NCBI GenBank assembly: GCA_937861125.1
Contig: CALMAY010000037.1
Span: 68,941-132,940, forward strand
Reading direction: 5' to 3'
Length of the DNA stretch: 64,000 nt
From: an uncultured bacterium
GTDB taxonomy: Bacteria > Patescibacteriota > Patescibacteriia > Magasanikbacterales > UBA922
In this document: one piece after another, positions 3,759-55,736 of the stretch
Numbering within the stretch: position 1 is the stretch's first letter
Layout of the letters: each line of letters starts with the position of its first letter
Notes under the pieces: model-generated
Told to the model about the DNA's origin: nothing
Databases searched by the model: none
Seen by the model: the letters and a program-made list of their open reading frames with translations, nothing else
Position numbers and translations under genes: made by a program

Positions 3759-3786
3759 TTGACAACTCTCTCTTTACTAAGATAAG
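3759..3786 (+). promoter_or_regulatory. Cassette promoter P1 (decayed copy)
   Basis: CATTGACA followed by (CT)4 TTTAC TAAGAT. It aligns with P2-P4, but the -35/-10 spacer is only 13 nt. Confidence 0.35.
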
Positions 3787-3824
3787 CTTGTGTTCATCTG
3801 TTTCACAAGAACAAAGGAAGGAAA

Positions 3825-3911
3825 ATGGAAGATATCTGGACTACACTCAAACTCGTACTTTTGCTTTTTTTCATTCTTGCTGTATGGTCAGCAATCAGAG
3901 CAGGAGACTAG
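3825..3911 (+). CDS. 28-aa hydrophobic peptide (MEDIWTTLKLVLLLFFILAVWSAIRAGD)
   Basis: The ATG is preceded by AAAGGAAGGAAA. One TM-like segment. It sits between cassette promoter P1 and terminator T1 and is below the ORF-track cutoff. Confidence 0.45.
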   Translation: MEDIWTTLKLVLLLFFILAVWSAIRAGD

Positions 3912-3931
3912 TACGAGAAGGGCATGAACAG

Positions 3932-4004
3932 CCGTTCGACCCTCGCGCATAGTTTCCAAAATTATTGGTTACTGTGTGGGAGGATTTGGTCGAGCGGTTT
4001 TTTT
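3932..4004 (+). terminator. Conserved bulged terminator hairpin T1
   Basis: Lower stem is CCGTTCGACC/GGTCGAGCGG, upper stem is CTCGCGCA/TGTGGGAG, with a 3'-side bulge GATTT and a T7 run. Confidence 0.75.
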
Positions 4005-4026
4005 GTTATTTATCCACTTCTAGGCA

Positions 4027-4055
4027 TTGACAACTCTCTCTCTCTTTGCTAGAAT
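4027..4055 (+). promoter_or_regulatory. Cassette promoter P2
   Basis: TTGACA (4027-4032), a 17-nt spacer made of A(CT)6TTGC, then TAGAAT (4050-4055). Confidence 0.7.
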
Positions 4056-4082
4056 GAGTTTTCCTTCAACCACCAGGTAAAC

Positions 4083-4175
4083 ATGATAGCAGCCATCATC
4101 ATCGCCTACTCAGTAGGCTTCGGATCCGGGCTGCTGCTCGGATTTGGGATTTGTTTAATTTTTGTCAAAAGATGA
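4083..4175 (+). CDS. 30-aa hydrophobic peptide (MIAAIIIAYSVGFGSGLLLGFGICLIFVKR)
   Basis: Short ORF between P2 and T2. The RBS is weak. A G8 tract (4180-4187) follows the stop. Confidence 0.4.
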   Translation: MIAAIIIAYSVGFGSGLLLGFGICLIFVKR

Positions 4176-4196
4176 GGCAGGGGGGGGAACGAACAA

Positions 4197-4269
4197 CTGC
4201 TCGACCCTCACGCAATATATTCAATATCTGTTGAGTGTGCTGCGGGAGGATTTGGTCGAGCGGTTTTTT
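4197..4269 (+). terminator. Conserved bulged terminator hairpin T2
   Basis: Lower stem is CTGCTCGACC/GGTCGAGCGG, upper stem is CTCACGCA/TGCGGGAG, with bulge GATTT and a T6 run. Confidence 0.75.
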
Positions 4270-11440: not shown

Positions 11441-11468
11441 AAAAAACCGCTAAATCTAGCGGTTTTTT
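11441..11468 (+). terminator. Intrinsic terminator after nrdB
   Basis: A6, hairpin CCGCTA-aatc-TAGCGG, then T6. Confidence 0.8.
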
Positions 11469-11490
11469 GTTATTTATCCACTATCAAACA

Positions 11491-11517
11491 TTGACAACTC
11501 TCTCTCTTTGCTATAAT
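11491..11517 (+). promoter_or_regulatory. Cassette promoter P3
   Basis: TTGACA, a 15-nt spacer A(CT)5TTGC, then TATAAT. The upstream block GTTATTTATCCACT is shared with P2. Confidence 0.7.
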
Positions 11518-11573
11518 CAGCTGTTCCTCATGCAATTCGACAATTCCGTCGAAGAGGGACGTAAGAAGAAACA

Positions 11574-11831
11574 ATGAATCCTGGTCCTGATGACGTCGTG
11601 GCATGGGTGTGTCTTCTGGTCATCCTCTGTGGTGTCGTGGGCGGGTTGGTACACGCCTACACCCAAAACAATCACTTATGGGAACAGTTGATCGACAGCA
11701 CCCCCGAAGAAAAAAAGGGGGTCATTGAAGAAAGACGGAAAGAAAGCACACACACTACAACTAGTACCTGGTCGACTGTACTCATCGCTTTCATTGTCCT
11801 CTTTTTTGTACGCGCTGGCTGCATCGCGTAA
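11574..11831 (+). CDS. 85-aa two-TM small membrane protein
   Basis: An ORF-track entry lying between P3 and T3. It has N- and C-terminal hydrophobic helices and a charged middle. Confidence 0.55.
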   Translation: MNPGPDDVVAWVCLLVILCGVVGGLVHAYTQNNHLWEQLIDSTPEEKKGVIEERRKESTHTTTSTWSTVLIAFIVLFFVRAGCIA

Positions 11832-11877
11832 AGGGCCGCCCCTGGTAGGCTCGCCCACCGAGTTTCGGCACAATCAA

Positions 11878-11947
11878 CCGTTCGACCCTCGCGCAATATA
11901 TTTACTTTGTGAATATATTGCGGGAGGATTTGGTCGAGCGGTTTTTT
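11878..11947 (+). terminator. Conserved bulged terminator hairpin T3
   Basis: Lower stem is CCGTTCGACC/GGTCGAGCGG, upper stem is CTCGCGCAATATATT/AATATATTGCGGGAG, with bulge GATTT and a T6 run. Confidence 0.75.
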
Positions 11948-12191
11948 GTTATCTAAATAATACCCACTAAACACGTTCCCTCCTCTCGTAAAGGAGGGAC
12001 AGGGAGGAGTTACACTCACTATCTGGCACACGATAAACGCTACAGACACCCCTAACCCTTCCCTACTAAGGAGAAGAACGTATTTAGTTTATTTTGATAC
12101 AAAACACACTTCATACATCACAAACAAAATATTATCTTCTATACGAAATACGTTGTACGAAATACACCAAAAATGGTACAATACACGCACT

Positions 12192-43152: not shown

Positions 43153-44184
43153 ATGTCACAAAAAACAACACAAAATCCTGTCGTATCCATCGCTCGACTT
43201 CTTAAAACATTAGGAAAAGAAGAACATATTGTCGTAGAAGTAGAACCAACATGGGAACATGTCGGTCGCATTTTGAAAAAAAATAACACATACTCTTATT
43301 TTCGTGGTGCTCATTTTGATCTCAATGGACTCGGCTCAACTGAGATAGCAGTAGACAAAGCATACACACATTATTTTCTTAAAAAAAGCGGCTTTCGTAC
43401 TATCGATACAAAAACTTTTTTTTCACAATCTTTTGGCAAAAAAATTCATAGCACAAATACTATACGTAGTGCCTACACACATGCCAAAAAAATTGGCTTT
43501 CCGGTAGTAGTAAAACCAAATACAGCATCCCAAGGACGTCTTGTCTGCGTTACACATAATCAAAGAACATTTTTTGAAGCAGTAAAACACATCACACAAA
43601 TAGATCGTGTATTCCTCGTCCAACCACTTATCTCTGGACATGATTACCGCGTCGTAGTACTCAACAATGAAGTACTCTCAGCATACGAGCGACTTCCACT
43701 CACTGTCACTGGAGATGGTACATCTACCATTCATCAACTTCTTGTCAAAAAACAAAAACAGTTTATAACAGAGGGACGAGATACACATATCAACGCTGAC
43801 GACTTTAGAACCACACATAAACTAGCACGTCTTGGATATACAAAAAAGACAATTCTACCTGCAGGTGAATCATGTGCACTCCTTGATAACCGAAATTTAT
43901 CCACTGGCGGTGACTCTATCGATGTAACTACTACCATTGATCCGACATACAAACAGCTTGCTATTGATATTGTCAAAACTATGGGTCTCTCATACTGTGG
44001 CATTGACCTAATGGTTCAACACTCTATCACCCAACCATTTCACCCAAAAACAAACACATACACAGTCATTGAACTCAACGCTGCCCCAGGAGTAGATCAC
44101 TATGCCAAGTCAGGACCAGCACAAAAAAAGAATGTGAAAGAAATGTATCGAAAAGTTCTCAAAGCAATATATACACAAGAATAA
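43153..44184 (+). CDS. ATP-grasp ligase resembling the cyanophycin-synthetase N-terminal / RimK type
   Basis: IAVDKAYTHYFLKKSGF, GFPVVVKPNTASQGR, GHDYRVVVL, NLSTGGDSIDVT, and VIELNAAPG. Confidence 0.75.
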   Translation: MSQKTTQNPVVSIARLLKTLGKEEHIVVEVEPTWEHVGRILKKNNTYSYFRGAHFDLNGLGSTEIAVDKAYTHYFLKKSGFRTIDTKTFFSQSFGKKIHSTNTIRSAYTHAKKIGFPVVVKPNTASQGRLVCVTHNQRTFFEAVKHITQIDRVFLVQPLISGHDYRVVVLNNEVLSAYERLPLTVTGDGTSTIHQLLVKKQKQFITEGRDTHINADDFRTTHKLARLGYTKKTILPAGESCALLDNRNLSTGGDSIDVTTTIDPTYKQLAIDIVKTMGLSYCGIDLMVQHSITQPFHPKTNTYTVIELNAAPGVDHYAKSGPAQKKNVKEMYRKVLKAIYTQE

Positions 44185-44195
44185 TACATGTACAC

Positions 44196-44226
44196 AAAAA
44201 ACCACCCAAAGAACGGGTGGTTTTTT
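44196..44226 (+). terminator. Terminator after the ATP-grasp gene
   Basis: A5, hairpin CCACCC-aaagaac-GGGTGG, then T6. Confidence 0.8.
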
Positions 44227-44242
44227 GTTCCACTTTTAAGCA

Positions 44243-44271
44243 TTGACATCTCTCTCTCTCTTTGCTAATCT
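44243..44271 (+). promoter_or_regulatory. Cassette promoter P4
   Basis: CATTGACA, a 17-nt spacer T(CT)6TTGC, then TAATCT (weak -10). Confidence 0.5.
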
Positions 44272-44302
44272 AATAATTAACCAGCTAGAGCCACGGAGGA
44301 AT

Positions 44303-44602
44303 ATGAGCAAATCATATGTGAACGTCAAAATCGACCATCTTGATTTCTTCAATCTTTTCGAGGAATTTCTAGAAACGGAAAACCAATACGTTCGCATCTA
44401 TCGGCGACCCATTGGACAAGAAGGTGGGAGTGGAAGGTTTACAATCAGAGGGAAAGAGTACCCATCGATCAAACTCTTTAGACATAGAGAATACTGCACA
44501 ATCGGTGACCACGAAGAATTCGCAACACGAGTTCATGAAGTAGTTGCTGCTTTTCTGCAGTTTCTCGACAAGAGAGGCATAACGTACACCATACTTGACT
44601 AA
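44303..44602 (+). CDS. 99-aa hypothetical soluble protein (cassette 4 cargo)
   Basis: ATG 44303 is preceded by GGAGGA. No recognisable motif. Confidence 0.6.
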   Translation: MSKSYVNVKIDHLDFFNLFEEFLETENQYVRIYRRPIGQEGGSGRFTIRGKEYPSIKLFRHREYCTIGDHEEFATRVHEVVAAFLQFLDKRGITYTILD

Positions 44603-44630
44603 TCTCATAGTAGGCGTTGTGGAATAAAAA

Positions 44631-44706
44631 TCCACCCGATCCTGCCAATGTATTCGAATGATCGAATGTATTGGGAGGAGGCTAACGGGTGGGTTTTTAT
44701 TTTTTG
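44631..44706 (+). terminator. Bulged terminator hairpin T4 (structural homolog of T1-T3)
   Basis: Lower stem is CCACCCG/CGGGTGG. The upper 17-bp stem is CCTGCCAATGTATTCGA/TCGAATGTATTGGGAGG with one G/G mismatch. There is a 3' bulge AGGCTAA, then T5AT7. Confidence 0.7.
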
Positions 44707-44747
44707 TGTAGTAAACTTCGTCAACTCCGCAAACTCCCAAAACTTCT

Positions 44748-47399
44748 TCATTTTATCTCCCCCCATCGCTTCCCAAATCCAACCTCCACTGCAATCGGTA
44801 CTTTCAATTTCGTTACATTTTGCATTGTCTCTTTTACTAATTTTGAAACCTCGTCTTCCATTCCTTCTTTAACCTCCAACACAAGCTCGTCGTGTACCTG
44901 CAATATCATCTTTGTAGAATTTCTAATTTCTAATTTCAAATTTCTAATATTCTTGTCGAGTTCAATCATAGCGAGCTTCATAATATCCGCCGCTGTACCC
45001 TGCACCGGCATATTGATCGCCATCCGTTCACCCGCATTTCGAAGTTGAAAATTATCTGAACTTAATTCTGGAATATAACGACGACGCCCAAACAATGTCT
45101 CCACATATCCATTATTTTTGGCAAACACCAAGGTCTCATCCAAATATTTTTTTACCCCAGCAAATTTTTGGAAATACGTTTCGATAAATCGCTTCGCTTC
45201 AAACTGTGTCAATCCTGTCCCACGAGCAAGTCCAAACGCCCCCTGACCATAGAGTACGCCAAAGTTCACTGCCTTGGCAGCGCGACGCATATCCTTGGTC
45301 ACGTCCTCGAGTTTCACACCATTGATCACCGCAGCAGTCGCAGCATGGACGTCCTCACCACGCTCAAAGATACCAATCAACGTCTCATCATTGGCAAGCG
45401 AAGCAACCACACGCAATTCAATCTGTGAGTAATCAGCTGCAATCAACGAGCACCCAGGCGCAGCGATAAACGCATTACGAATCTCACGCCCTAGTTCTGT
45501 ACGAATCGGAATGTTTTGCATGTTTGGATCTGTACTTGAAAGTCGTCCAGTGGAAGCCACCGCCTGATTAAACGTTGTGTGGATGCGACCATCATTTTTG
45601 ACCAACGTCGGTAATACATCGATATAGGTATTACGCAGTTTTTCGAGTTCTCGATATTCTTCAATTGATTCTATAATTGGGTGCAGCTCTCGCAATTTAT
45701 CGAGCTCAGACGACGCAGTTGAATATCCTGTCTTTCCTTTTTTAATTCCCTGCGTTGGCAGCGCAAGTGTATCAAACAACACATCGCGCAACTGAGTAGA
45801 TGATGAGATATTAAATTCCACACCAGCTTCTTTCCAAATAGTTTTGCTCACAGCTTCAATTTCACCTGCCACACGCTTGGACAACTCACTCATCATCTGT
45901 GTATCCACCACAATACCGTTTTCCTCCATGTTCGCCAGCACTGGCAACAGCGCCATTTCAATATCGGCAAACACCACTCGATCTGCTGGAGTCAACTGTT
46001 CATTGTATAACGTATAGAGCTGCGTTAATGCAGACACCTCCTGCGTATGATCTTCTGAAGTTTCTGCACCAAACAAATCTCCCTGCACAATTGCAGCTGC
46101 CGTTGCCTCACTCCCAAGCTCTCGCATCATCAACGACGCGAGGTCGTGTGAACGCGTACTACTATTGAGCACATAAGAAGCAATCATGACATCAAAGAGT
46201 GTGTTTTCTACTTTCATTCCTTTTGCAAAAAATGCATGCATCATTTGCTTAATATCATGACCAATTAACGTAAGATCTTTATTACTAAAAAGTGACTGAC
46301 AATCAGTAACTAGCAACTGCAGATTATATATTGCACACGTATCACCTTTTTCAACTCCTATATATATTGTCTCACCGACAATTCGACAAACAAATCGTTT
46401 TACCTCTTCTATCTCTTTTACCAATGTACCAAACTCTTTCTCAGTCTTGACCGACACAACTTCAATGACCTCCTTTTTACTTTTCTTGGTGTTTGTATCT
46501 TGGTGTTTTGATGTTTCTCCAAGAGCCGCACGTGCACGTTTGATAAAAGAGAAAAACTCAAACTTCTGCAATGTTTCAACCACAGTATCTGCCTGAAATG
46601 AAACCGCGCATGTACTCAATTCACACGCAATATCAGGCACATCAGTATGAATCGTCGCTAACTGTTTACTCAACTGTGCGTCTGTTTTTCCCTCAACAAT
46701 TTTTGTATACATTGCTGGTTTCACTAATTCTTTTAACTGATCAAGCCGTTCATACATCTGCTCAATACTTCCAAATTCTTTAATCAATTCAATCGCCGTT
46801 TTGTCACCGACCCCTTTAATCCCTTTGATATTATCCGACGTATCTCCGGCGAGCGCCTTGTAATCTGGGACAAACTTTGGTTCAAAGCCGTAGATATCTA
46901 CCACCTCATCATCACCACAAAGCAGTGTGTCTGACATACCTTTGCGCATCAGATACACTTTGACGTTTCCACCGACAAGCTGAAGCAAATCCTTATCCCC
47001 CGTCACAATCACAATGTCACATTCTGCATTTTGCATTTTGCATTTTTGTGCAAGCGTTCCAATCACATCATCTGCTTCAAATCCTTTCTTTGTTACAATC
47101 GAAATACCAAACGACTCCACCAAAGTATAGACAAGTGGAATTTGATCATAAAGATCCTGGTCTGCCTTGACGCGTGTGGCCTTGTAACTCTCCGCTAAAT
47201 CATTGCGAAACGATCCACCGGCCACATCAAACGCTACCACCATATGTGTTGGTTTGAGATCAGCAATGATTTTGAGTAGCATTGATGCAAATCCAAACAC
47301 CGCCTGTACAGACGTACCATCTTTGGTCGTCATTGGTGGGATGGCGTGATAGGCACGGTGGATGATGGCATTCCCATCAATCAGAACAAATTTACTCAT
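44748..47399 (-). CDS. polA: DNA polymerase I
   Basis: 5'-3' exonuclease domain (VTGDKDLLQL) and polymerase motifs DYSQIELR, RRAAKAVNFG and QVHDELV. Confidence 0.97.
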   Translation of the reverse strand: MSKFVLIDGNAIIHRAYHAIPPMTTKDGTSVQAVFGFASMLLKIIADLKPTHMVVAFDVAGGSFRNDLAESYKATRVKADQDLYDQIPLVYTLVESFGISIVTKKGFEADDVIGTLAQKCKMQNAECDIVIVTGDKDLLQLVGGNVKVYLMRKGMSDTLLCGDDEVVDIYGFEPKFVPDYKALAGDTSDNIKGIKGVGDKTAIELIKEFGSIEQMYERLDQLKELVKPAMYTKIVEGKTDAQLSKQLATIHTDVPDIACELSTCAVSFQADTVVETLQKFEFFSFIKRARAALGETSKHQDTNTKKSKKEVIEVVSVKTEKEFGTLVKEIEEVKRFVCRIVGETIYIGVEKGDTCAIYNLQLLVTDCQSLFSNKDLTLIGHDIKQMMHAFFAKGMKVENTLFDVMIASYVLNSSTRSHDLASLMMRELGSEATAAAIVQGDLFGAETSEDHTQEVSALTQLYTLYNEQLTPADRVVFADIEMALLPVLANMEENGIVVDTQMMSELSKRVAGEIEAVSKTIWKEAGVEFNISSSTQLRDVLFDTLALPTQGIKKGKTGYSTASSELDKLRELHPIIESIEEYRELEKLRNTYIDVLPTLVKNDGRIHTTFNQAVASTGRLSSTDPNMQNIPIRTELGREIRNAFIAAPGCSLIAADYSQIELRVVASLANDETLIGIFERGEDVHAATAAVINGVKLEDVTKDMRRAAKAVNFGVLYGQGAFGLARGTGLTQFEAKRFIETYFQKFAGVKKYLDETLVFAKNNGYVETLFGRRRYIPELSSDNFQLRNAGERMAINMPVQGTAADIMKLAMIELDKNIRNLKLEIRNSTKMILQVHDELVLEVKEGMEDEVSKLVKETMQNVTKLKVPIAVEVGFGKRWGEIK

Positions 47400-55054: not shown

Positions 55055-55432
55055 GTGCTTCAAAAAGAAAACCGCCTTACTCGAAAACGTGATTTTGAAA
55101 TTCTCTTCAAAGAGGGTCGTTTTGTGCCGGGCACACTAACGACGATGAAGTATTGGAAAGTACAACCGGAAAAATATCCGAAGCGCGGGTACAATACGGC
55201 GGATCTCAAAATTGGTTTTATTGTCTCAGCAAAATTTAGCAAAAAGGCAGTCGATCGAAACCGAGTAAAACGACAAATGCGTGAAGTGGTTCGTTTACTT
55301 CTCAAAGAAAACAAAATTCCCGTTGGATATATGATTGCAATTATGGTGAAAAACGAGATGCTTGGGAAAGAGTATGGGGAGATAGAGAAAAGTATCGTGC
55401 AGATGTTGAAGCGTGCTAATTTGTTCATGTAA
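55055..55432 (+). CDS. rnpA: RNase P protein component
   Basis: GTG start. LTRKRDFEILFKEG... and the RNR motif (AVDRNRVKRQMRE). Confidence 0.85.
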   Translation: MLQKENRLTRKRDFEILFKEGRFVPGTLTTMKYWKVQPEKYPKRGYNTADLKIGFIVSAKFSKKAVDRNRVKRQMREVVRLLLKENKIPVGYMIAIMVKNEMLGKEYGEIEKSIVQMLKRANLFM

Positions 55433-55488
55433 CATGTAGCACAAAACATGTAACAAATATAAATGTGTTACATGTTATATGTTACATG
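55426..55488. repeat. Four copies of CATGTAACA (two direct, two inverted) between rnpA and yidD
   Basis: Direct copies are at 55426-55434 and 55447-55455. Inverted copies (TGTTACATG) are at 55466-55474 and 55480-55488. The array overlaps the rnpA stop and the yidD start. Confidence 0.75.
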
Positions 55489-55736
55489 ATGTTTTTCTAA
55501 TATCACGACGAATCGTGCTACGATGCATTCGTCTTTACCAAAAATTCCTCTCTCCAGATCATAGTTTTTGGGCCAAACATATTCACCCAATTGGATACTG
55601 CAAATTCACGCCTACATGCTCTGAGTATGGATACACGTCTATTGAACGCTACGGAGTGGTTCGTGGTGGTCTACGGGCACTGTGGCGCGTTCTACGGTGT
55701 AATCCATGGAGTAGGGGTGGCGAGGATTTACCATAA
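55479..55736 (+). CDS. yidD: Membrane protein insertion efficiency factor YidD
   Basis: YQKFLSP...CKFTPTCSEYGYTSIERYG...RCNPW. Confidence 0.85.
   Translation: MLHDVFLISRRIVLRCIRLYQKFLSPDHSFWAKHIHPIGYCKFTPTCSEYGYTSIERYGVVRGGLRALWRVLRCNPWSRGGEDLP

Follow-up and report, generated by a model that had tools for sequence, protein, structure and literature searches.

What does the hairpin T4, which closes the fourth of four small-gene cassettes in the 64,000-nucleotide stretch of DNA analysed here (hereafter, the window), do beyond ending a transcript? A first-pass annotation of this locus had described T4 as diverged in sequence from the terminators T1, T2 and T3 of the other three cassettes, with completely different stems in an identical architecture and the heptamer GGGAGGA as the only conserved sequence, and had argued from the compensatory changes for an RNA function beyond simple termination. 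Our analysis led to a different answer. We consider it probable that T4 is a Rho-independent terminator, and probably also a 3'-end stabiliser, of a strongly promoted, monocistronic small-gene cassette. Together with T1 to T3 and their kin it appears to belong to a lineage-specific terminator family, found in one genus of Candidatus Magasanikbacteria and in a few other Magasanikbacteria.

When folded, T4 displayed the parts that the annotation had listed, namely a lower GC stem, a 3' bulge, a mismatch, an upper stem and a U-run, with a stability of -42.7 kcal/mol with its flanks (z = -9.3 against shuffles). Its components are the following, a single A being left unpaired on the 5' side past the lower stem:

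44632..44705, + strand: T4, a two-tier intrinsic terminator, with its 61-nt hairpin at 44632-44692 and then GUUUUUAUUUUUU
44632-38 / 44686-92, + strand: lower stem, CCACCCG/CGGGTGG
44640-43 / 44676-79, + strand: clamp helix, UCCU/AGGA
44644 / 44675, + strand: G.G mismatch
44645-57 / 44662-74, + strand: upper stem of 13 bp, CCAAUGUAUUCGA/UCGAAUGUAUUGG, with the loop AUGA
44673-79, + strand: GGGAGGA
44680-85, + strand: 3' bulge, GGCUAA
44694-44705, + strand: U-run

A scan of every T-run in the 64 kb ranked T1 to T4 as the four most stable terminator-like hairpins, and the folds of T1 to T3 have the same layout as that of T4. Three promoters resembling that of cassette 4 (P4) occur elsewhere in the window, at 3759, 4027 and 11491, each followed by a small open reading frame (ORF) and a hairpin of this layout:

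3759..4004, + strand: cassette 1, with P1 (3759-83; (CT)4, 13-nt spacer), an ORF for a hydrophobic peptide of 28 amino acids (aa; 3825-3911) and T1 (hairpin 3932-3997, then a U-run)
4027..4269, + strand: cassette 2, with P2 (4027-55; (CT)6, 17-nt spacer), an ORF for a hydrophobic 30-aa peptide (4083-4175) and T2 (hairpin 4197-4263, then a U-run)
11491..11947, + strand: cassette 3, with P3 (11491-517; (CT)5, 15-nt spacer), an 85-aa ORF with a hydrophobic stretch at each end (11574-11831) and T3 (hairpin 11878-11941, then a U-run)

Contigs of relatives were reached through the neighbouring genes and through homologues of ORF99, the 99-aa cargo of cassette 4. Nine further copies were recovered from seven other contigs, which brought the collection to 13 elements in 8 contigs:

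L172a and L172b: T1-3 type, from the same genus as the window
L173a: an element with a new lower stem, CCGCCUCAAGC
L173b: T4 type
L020 and L032: from other Magasanikbacteria, with stems that differ again
L182, L304 and L305: T4 type, each located after an ORF99 homologue

The same architecture recurs throughout these 13 elements, and consists of a lower GC stem of 7-11 bp, an asymmetric 3' loop of 3-8 nt, a short clamp helix, a purine-purine mismatch or an A bulge, a long AU-rich upper stem (14-22 bp for the upper part) and a U-run, the whole spanning about two helical turns. The lower stems fall into five different sequences, and the mismatch, where present, stays purine-purine (G.G, A.G or G.A). 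The family-wide pairing table was built from each sequence's own fold and carries no test value. A covariance model of the T1-3 type retrieved T4 at 28 bits (E = 3e-4), along with L173a, L020 and L032. Conversely, the T4-type model retrieved T3 at 48.8 bits, L020 at 44, T2 at 36 and T1 at 33, against at most 29 bits for simple terminators, which scored that high only with a CCACCC stem. The base of the upper stem is also alike, reading CCAAT/ATTGG in T4 and GCAAT/ATTGC in T2 and T3, so that the description of the T4 stems as completely different was overstated. Moreover, the T4-type element L173b lies just before pilB, at the very spot occupied by T3 and L172b, with the same downstream flank. 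Because the model matches are reciprocal, the upper-stem base is shared and L173b sits at an orthologous position, we regard T4 as a diverged homologue of T1 to T3 within one family, and not as a product of convergence.

Could this likeness nevertheless be due to chance, and the heptamer be coincidental? About 9% of shuffled T4 sequences do share a 7-mer outside the T-run with T1 to T3. Against this stand the reciprocity of the covariance-model matches, well above most simple terminators, the presence of a T4-type element at the T3 position, a promoter and an upstream module held in common, and the recurrence of GGAGG in five further sequence types, and we find the idea hardly credible.

The family is not represented in Rfam 15, where the window yielded only tRNAs above the gathering threshold, every match within 44150-44760 fell far below it, and L173, L182, L304 and L305 matched no family. 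A metagenome scan with the pattern ATTGN{0,3}GAGGATTTGGN{5,8}TTTTT gave at least 120 matches; none of those listed folded into two tiers, and they were chance matches. At least 120 chance matches were likewise obtained from IMG/VR with a looser 3'-arm pattern, with no family member among the matches listed. As for the host, the window is a piece of bacterial chromosome, with tRNAs, efp, nrdAB, pilB, polA and dnaA. Homologues of its PolA and PilB place the window in Candidatus Magasanikbacteria: protein identity is 90-96% in a few congeners, and beyond these it is at most 57% for PolA and 68% for PilB.

With both types in hand, the compensatory changes reported by the annotation could be confirmed. 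Within the T4 type, four pairs had changed on both sides, as compared with 0.9 in shuffles (1/500) and with 0-1 when the partners were slid as a control; the lower helix was invariant, and the two-sided changes were confined to the upper helix and the clamp. Within the T1-3 type, three pairs had changed on both sides, all in the apex. The sense strand folded better than the antisense strand in 12/13 elements, and G-U pairs numbered 30 in sense versus 9 in antisense. These two-sided changes, together with the sense-strand bias in folding and in G-U pairs, show that the hairpin is under selection as RNA in the transcribed orientation, and point away from selection on a DNA palindrome. They do not carry the further step taken by the annotation: pairing is already under selection in the RNA hairpin of an intrinsic terminator, so covariation and sense bias are what an ordinary terminator needs and, alone, do not point beyond termination. 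In keeping with such a role, all 13 elements are downstream of, and co-oriented with, an ORF, and in all of them the GC-rich lower stem is followed by a T-run, at least five consecutive T directly following the stem in 11 of the 13. The two exceptions are T4, where a G comes first, and L032, which reads TTTGTTGTTT. A palindrome of the repetitive extragenic palindromic (REP) or miniature inverted-repeat transposable element (MITE) kind was ruled out, given the co-orientation of 13/13 elements with the upstream ORF and the sense-biased pairing.

We propose that the long AU-rich upper hairpin would form first as the RNA is made, and that its pairing would draw together the GC-rich strands of the lower stem beside the U-run, leading to release of the transcript. 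The resulting structure of about 25 bp would then block 3'-to-5' exonucleases and shield the 3' end of the transcript. A two-tier hairpin of this kind might also be read, by analogy, as an RNase III-type processing site, in which, after a single cleavage within the 3' loop, the upper hairpin would remain and protect the 3' end. The early-mRNA sites of phage T7 (R1.1 type) combine two stems, upper and lower, around an asymmetric internal loop, and the layout of 7-11 bp, a 3-8-nt asymmetric 3' loop and 14-22 bp, about two helical turns in all, would suit such a site. Yet the U-run directly after the lower stem already suffices for a 3' end, and we hold processing of this type to be improbable.

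What, then, of the heptamer? GGGAGGA is indeed the sole 7-mer outside the T-run common to T1 to T4. It is not invariant, however, once further copies are considered: the full heptamer was found in 8/13 elements, GGAGGA in 11/13 and GGAGG in 12/13, so that it is the GGAGG core which is conserved. Alterations of GGGAGGA were seen in L173a, L173b (which has GGUAGGGGG at the motif position), L020, L032 and L182. The last of these is the closest T4 orthologue, identical at every paired position, and yet has GGAAGGA within GGAAGGAGG; it departs from T4 solely in its bulge, its tail and the mismatch (G.G to G.A). Taken by themselves, the four copies of the window make the shared heptamer a weak argument, given the frequency of shared 7-mers in shuffled sequences; in the folds, moreover, the heptamer of T4 is 1 nt out of register with those of T1 to T3 relative to the mismatch. 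The motif is invariably located at the 3' junction of the upper and lower helices, some of its bases pairing with a short CCUC, UCCU or CC clamp and the others lying in the asymmetric loop. Among 52 terminator-like hairpins from loci of the genus, eight had GGAGG in their 3' half, and seven of these eight were family members. Over the whole window, GGAGG occurred close to chance on the two strands (30 and 38 times, versus 25 and 51 expected).

This pattern may hint at a second function, GGAGG(A) acting as a mimic of the Shine-Dalgarno (SD) sequence for a presumed 16S anti-SD or for 30S subunits, or as the site of a GGA-binding protein; the effect, compatible with termination, would be to stabilise the short mRNA or to tune translation. 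The retention of GGAGG at one junction although the adjoining lower stems are wholly different, its near restriction to the family among hairpins with the motif in their 3' half, and the predicted unpaired state of the AGGA part in the 3' loop of L020, L032 and L173a would fit such a role. So would its distinctiveness in a genus where one gene in 61 has an SD and yet most cassette ORFs are preceded by GAGG or GGAGG. On the other hand, the exact heptamer varies, in T1 to T4 the motif is for the most part engaged in pairing with CCUC or UCCU, the frequency in the window is about that of chance, and common descent in a young, recombining family could account for the conservation. On balance we see a second function as possible, if doubtful, and retain termination with 3' stabilisation as the preferred role of T4. 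Three other ideas about the motif were dropped. GGAGG does not open a small ORF, as no well-spaced start codon follows, except for a GUG opening a frame antisense to polA; pairing of an SD with the CCUC arm, between the 5' and 3' untranslated regions, was judged unlikely on general grounds and not by computation, the hairpins being very stable; and a kink-turn lacks its tandem G.A pairs following a 3-nt bulge.

The remainder of the cassette 4 locus is organised as follows:

44198..44230, + strand: simple intrinsic terminator of the upstream ATP-grasp gene, AAAAAACCACCC-aaagaa-CGGGTGGTTTTTT, fold -20.8 kcal/mol
44241-44271, + strand: P4, CATTGACA-T-(CT)6-TTGC-TAATCT, with the -35 box TTGACA at 44243-44248, (CT)6 at 44250-61, TG at 44263-64, the -10 box TAATCT at 44266-71 and a spacer of 17 nt
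44295..44300, + strand: SD sequence GGAGGA of ORF99, the ATG lying 2 nt further on
44303..44602, + strand: ORF99, predicted soluble alpha/beta protein of 99 aa
44616..44631, + strand: pre-hairpin motif GTTGTGGAATAAAAAT, kept in all five T4-type copies
44748..47399, - strand: polA, convergent on T4

The stem of the 44198-44230 terminator is similar to the lower stem of T4, and this terminator is 98% identical in L182. The sequence at 44241-44271 bears out the (CT)6-spaced promoter of the annotation; it went unflagged by a simple consensus scan because its -10 hexamer agrees with the consensus at just 3/6 positions. The A-tract within the pre-hairpin motif on one side and the U-tract on the other would make T4 a two-way terminator, and it probably also stops the convergent polA transcript, a reading that rests on geometry; the antisense strand of T4 folds at -26.8 kcal/mol, and a U-run follows.

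The annotation had spoken of a short transcript upstream of T4. Such a transcript would code for a genuine protein: ORF99 is a real gene, with three remote homologues, and only three, among 1.8 billion representative proteins, and its model, once these three had been aligned, showed a confident alpha/beta fold (predicted local distance difference test score, pLDDT, 92). No family was returned for it by Pfam and PHROG searches, the other cassette proteins likewise giving nothing in either collection, and a fold search of the model against the PDB gave no significant match. The ORF99 family thus counts four members (the homologues being P0242-P0244), with the conserved residues EGG, G-x-H (GDH in ORF99 and GNH in the three homologues) and a C-terminal YT.

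With respect to translation starts, GGAGG was present within 22 nt upstream of only 1/61 called genes (window 30061-50327, also designated L174, and L172, L173 and L051), that gene being ORF99; most cassette ORFs are preceded by GAGG or GGAGG, and in many genes of the genus a TAnAAT-like box is found 6-12 nt ahead of the ATG. This suggests mostly leaderless or SD-less initiation in the genus. A conserved hairpin in which an anti-SD-like sequence pairs with an SD-like sequence follows the last cassette terminator at window 11975-12012, L173 ~1945-1985 and L032 ~2935-2960; in the window and in L173 it lies upstream of pilB, and it reads TTCCCTCCTCTCGTAAAGGAGGGA then CAGGGAGGAG, with no match in Rfam. 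Elsewhere in the window, a near-perfect palindrome of 65 nt made of ACATGTAACATG-like units (55425-55496; -25.4 kcal/mol) lies downstream of dnaN; with a sign change of the GC skew close by, at ~54 kb, it may be tied to the replication origin.

Comparison of related genomes revealed that the promoter and the terminator are conserved boundaries, and that the enclosed ORF is subject to replacement, loss and relocation. The cargo consists mostly of small, apparently membrane proteins, that of cassette 4 being a soluble one. Specifically, (i) L172, whose coding DNA is 72-86% identical to that of the window, is devoid of cassettes 1 and 2, has an additional cassette between ruvB and nrdA, and at the nrdB-pilB locus keeps promoter and terminator around an unrelated 50-aa ORF; its terminators are 90-93% identical to window copies, the best matches being at other loci; (ii) in L182, the flanks, promoter and T4 of cassette 4 are 97-98% identical to those of the window, while the ORF is 51% identical at the protein level; (iii) L304 (tig 86% identical in nucleotides) carries a cassette between tig and a DAO-like gene, with a T4 92% and an ORF 40% identical, the insertion point being immediately behind the T-run of the tig terminator, a simple terminator that stands alone at this spot in the window; and (iv) the sister L051 (PolA 92% identical) lacks cassette 4, a single simple CCACCG/CGGUGG terminator separating its mazG-like gene from polA, at a place taken up in the window by the ATP-grasp gene with a terminator and by cassette 4 with T4. 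Overall, cassettes are scattered over at least five loci (efp, ruvB-nrdA, nrdB-pilB, mazG-polA and tig). The exchange, loss or relocation of the cargo would most likely proceed through recombination at the two conserved boundaries, promoter and terminator.

The junctions between cassettes and their upstream neighbours are also alike. T1 and P2 are separated by a gap of ~20 nt, simple terminators precede P1, P3 and P4, and the linker GCGGTTTTTTGTTATTTATCCACT is common to the upstream regions of P2 and P3. A stretch made of a terminator 3' half, a linker and the -35 hexamer (AGCGGTTTTTTGTTATTTATCCACT...CATTGACA) is shared by the passages from T1 to P2 and from the simple nrdB terminator to P3:

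window 3985-4032: shared terminator-linker-promoter stretch
window 11455-11496: shared terminator-linker-promoter stretch
L172 9550-9595: shared terminator-linker-promoter stretch

In addition, T3 and T4 have outer stems similar to those of the simple terminators that precede cassettes 3 and 4. Terminators may thus be the places where cassettes recombine into the chromosome, and would be duplicated in the process. In L173, a structured element of ~100 nt (795-900), with a long-range stem CATTGCGAG...CTCGCAATG, directly follows nrdB; it is not found in the window and has no Rfam match.

Such mobility raises the possibility that the hairpins are sites of recombination as folded single-stranded DNA, of the attC or Xer/dif-like kind, and terminate transcription only secondarily. 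The build of the hairpins, imperfectly palindromic, with extrahelical bases and an apex that varies, their place behind the ORFs of small cassettes, the gain, loss and relocation of these cassettes, and the insertion in L304 precisely behind the tig T-run would all be consistent with this, and the likeness to integrons extends to small cassettes of no assigned function whose content differs between relatives. Upon direct reading, however, the attC core sites R''/R' (RYYYAAC, GTTRRRY) are absent from the outer helices of T1 to T4, which are CCGYTCGACC/GGTCGAGCGG and CCACCCG/CGGGTGG, the GGCTAAC of T4 lying within the bulge without a partner. Unlike integron cassettes, each of these has its own promoter, and they are dispersed over the above loci and not arrayed by an integrase; neither an integrase nor an attI was seen near them, in a window not exhaustively scanned for integrases. 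The sense bias of the G-U pairs argues for folding of RNA, and apex sequences are free to vary within one type. A DNA recombination site therefore appears very improbable to us. A dif/Xer site in particular was discarded, there being no TTATGTTAAAT-like arm and the apex being variable. We also set aside a type I toxin/antitoxin role for the hydrophobic peptides, for which only a sub-threshold, terminator-like match to ohsC was obtained.

The promoter boundary is widespread in Patescibacteria, and its (CT)n spacer was seen in the four window promoters, in L182, L304 and L305 and at L003-L050. The pattern TTGACA-(CT)n-TGnTAnnnT was found at 48 loci (one genome per species), mostly in Patescibacteria, where it mostly precedes small ORFs whose products are hydrophobic by eye; in IMG/VR it matched once only. 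Values of n of 4, 5, 6 and 7, corresponding to spacers of 13, 15, 17 and 19 nt, were found in 5, 14, 12 and 4 promoters, respectively, and five further promoters of Patescibacteria have spacers of 14, 16 or 18 nt. The promoters homologous to P4, which has (CT)6, differ in their repeat number:

L182 390-416: (CT)5
L304 ~1611-1635: (CT)4
L305 ~2943-2971: (CT)6

Within the window's own strain no sequence differences were seen, the contigs all being 100% identical. The differences in (CT)n copy number among homologous promoters suggest that slippage tunes promoter strength, or that this strength is phase-variable.

Several points weigh against the picture of T4 as terminator and stabiliser of a movable cassette. 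Sequence comparison and folding establish the hairpin structures, their homology, the pattern of conservation and cassette turnover; termination and stabilisation were deduced from anatomy, and the recombination mechanism from end states only. Simple termination leaves the conservation of GGAGG and the purine-purine mismatch unexplained. The family is also narrow, the pilB locus of distant Magasanikbacteria (L177-L181; PilB 64-68%) having no such element, and most relatives are represented by short metagenomic contigs.

If the above picture is true, a conserved promoter/terminator pair around movable, fast-changing genes for small proteins, apparently of the membrane, would provide a concrete mechanism for variability at the surface or in host interaction. 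This matters for the Patescibacteria (candidate phyla radiation), which are mostly uncultured episymbionts, and whose regulation and genome plasticity are almost unstudied ground. The strong promoter and terminator would also serve as ready expression parts for the emerging genetics of this group. The GGAGG junction, in a nearly SD-less genus, offers a specific hypothesis; should it do nothing past termination, the family would simply be one of strong, lineage-specific terminators.

How do these cassettes compare with known systems? In the 'positive retroregulator' of Bacillus thuringiensis cry genes, a Rho-independent terminator acts as a 3' stabiliser. The cassettes have in common with it a very stable 3' hairpin and U-run after a strongly expressed monocistronic gene, with an expected exonuclease block, and differ in that their hairpins are related in sequence, contain an asymmetric internal loop, keep a mismatch and a GGAGG core, and are associated with cassette turnover. 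In the hif promoters of Haemophilus influenzae, a (TA)n tract alters the spacing between -35 and -10 and makes the promoter phase-variable. Here too a dinucleotide repeat lies between the two boxes and varies in copy number among homologous promoters; in contrast, this repeat is conserved across classes of Patescibacteria, and its variation is known from homologous promoters, not from switching within a population (for phase-variable promoters with simple sequence repeats in general, see PMC2651432).

Closest among the described systems are the promoter-early stem-loop (PeSL) cassettes of T4-like phages (Arbiol et al. 2010, PMC2839356; Comeau et al. 2014, PMC4122927), in which PeSLs flank ORFans and drive modular shuffling, partly via mini-circles. 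Both systems combine a near-consensus sigma-70 promoter and a stem-loop terminator in one conserved module, have such motifs flanking small ORFan genes, and show indels or replacements of small ORFs between close relatives that are bounded by the conserved motifs. They also share tandem arrays and a duplicated terminator-like sequence around inserts, the latter consistent with integration of a circular intermediate; mini-circles belong to the phage description, whereas the present cassettes are known from their sequence alone. PeSLs reside in hyperplastic regions of T4-like phages and have a short GC stem, whereas the present elements are located on a chromosome of Patescibacteria, have a two-tier hairpin of 60-70 nt with a conserved GGAGG junction, and are driven by promoters whose spacer is a (CT)n of variable length. 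A fuller scheme for Magasanikbacteria, and perhaps for other Patescibacteria, in which a PeSL-like chromosomal cassette system swapping hypervariable small proteins, apparently mostly of the membrane, would be joined to a promoter set by (CT)n slippage and to GGAGG as a working SD mimic that binds 30S subunits or a protein and controls the stability or translation of SD-led mRNAs, seems rather unlikely to us. What is new here, in comparison with the phage modules, is a PeSL-like cassette boundary with a strong intrinsic terminator on the chromosome of a member of the Patescibacteria.

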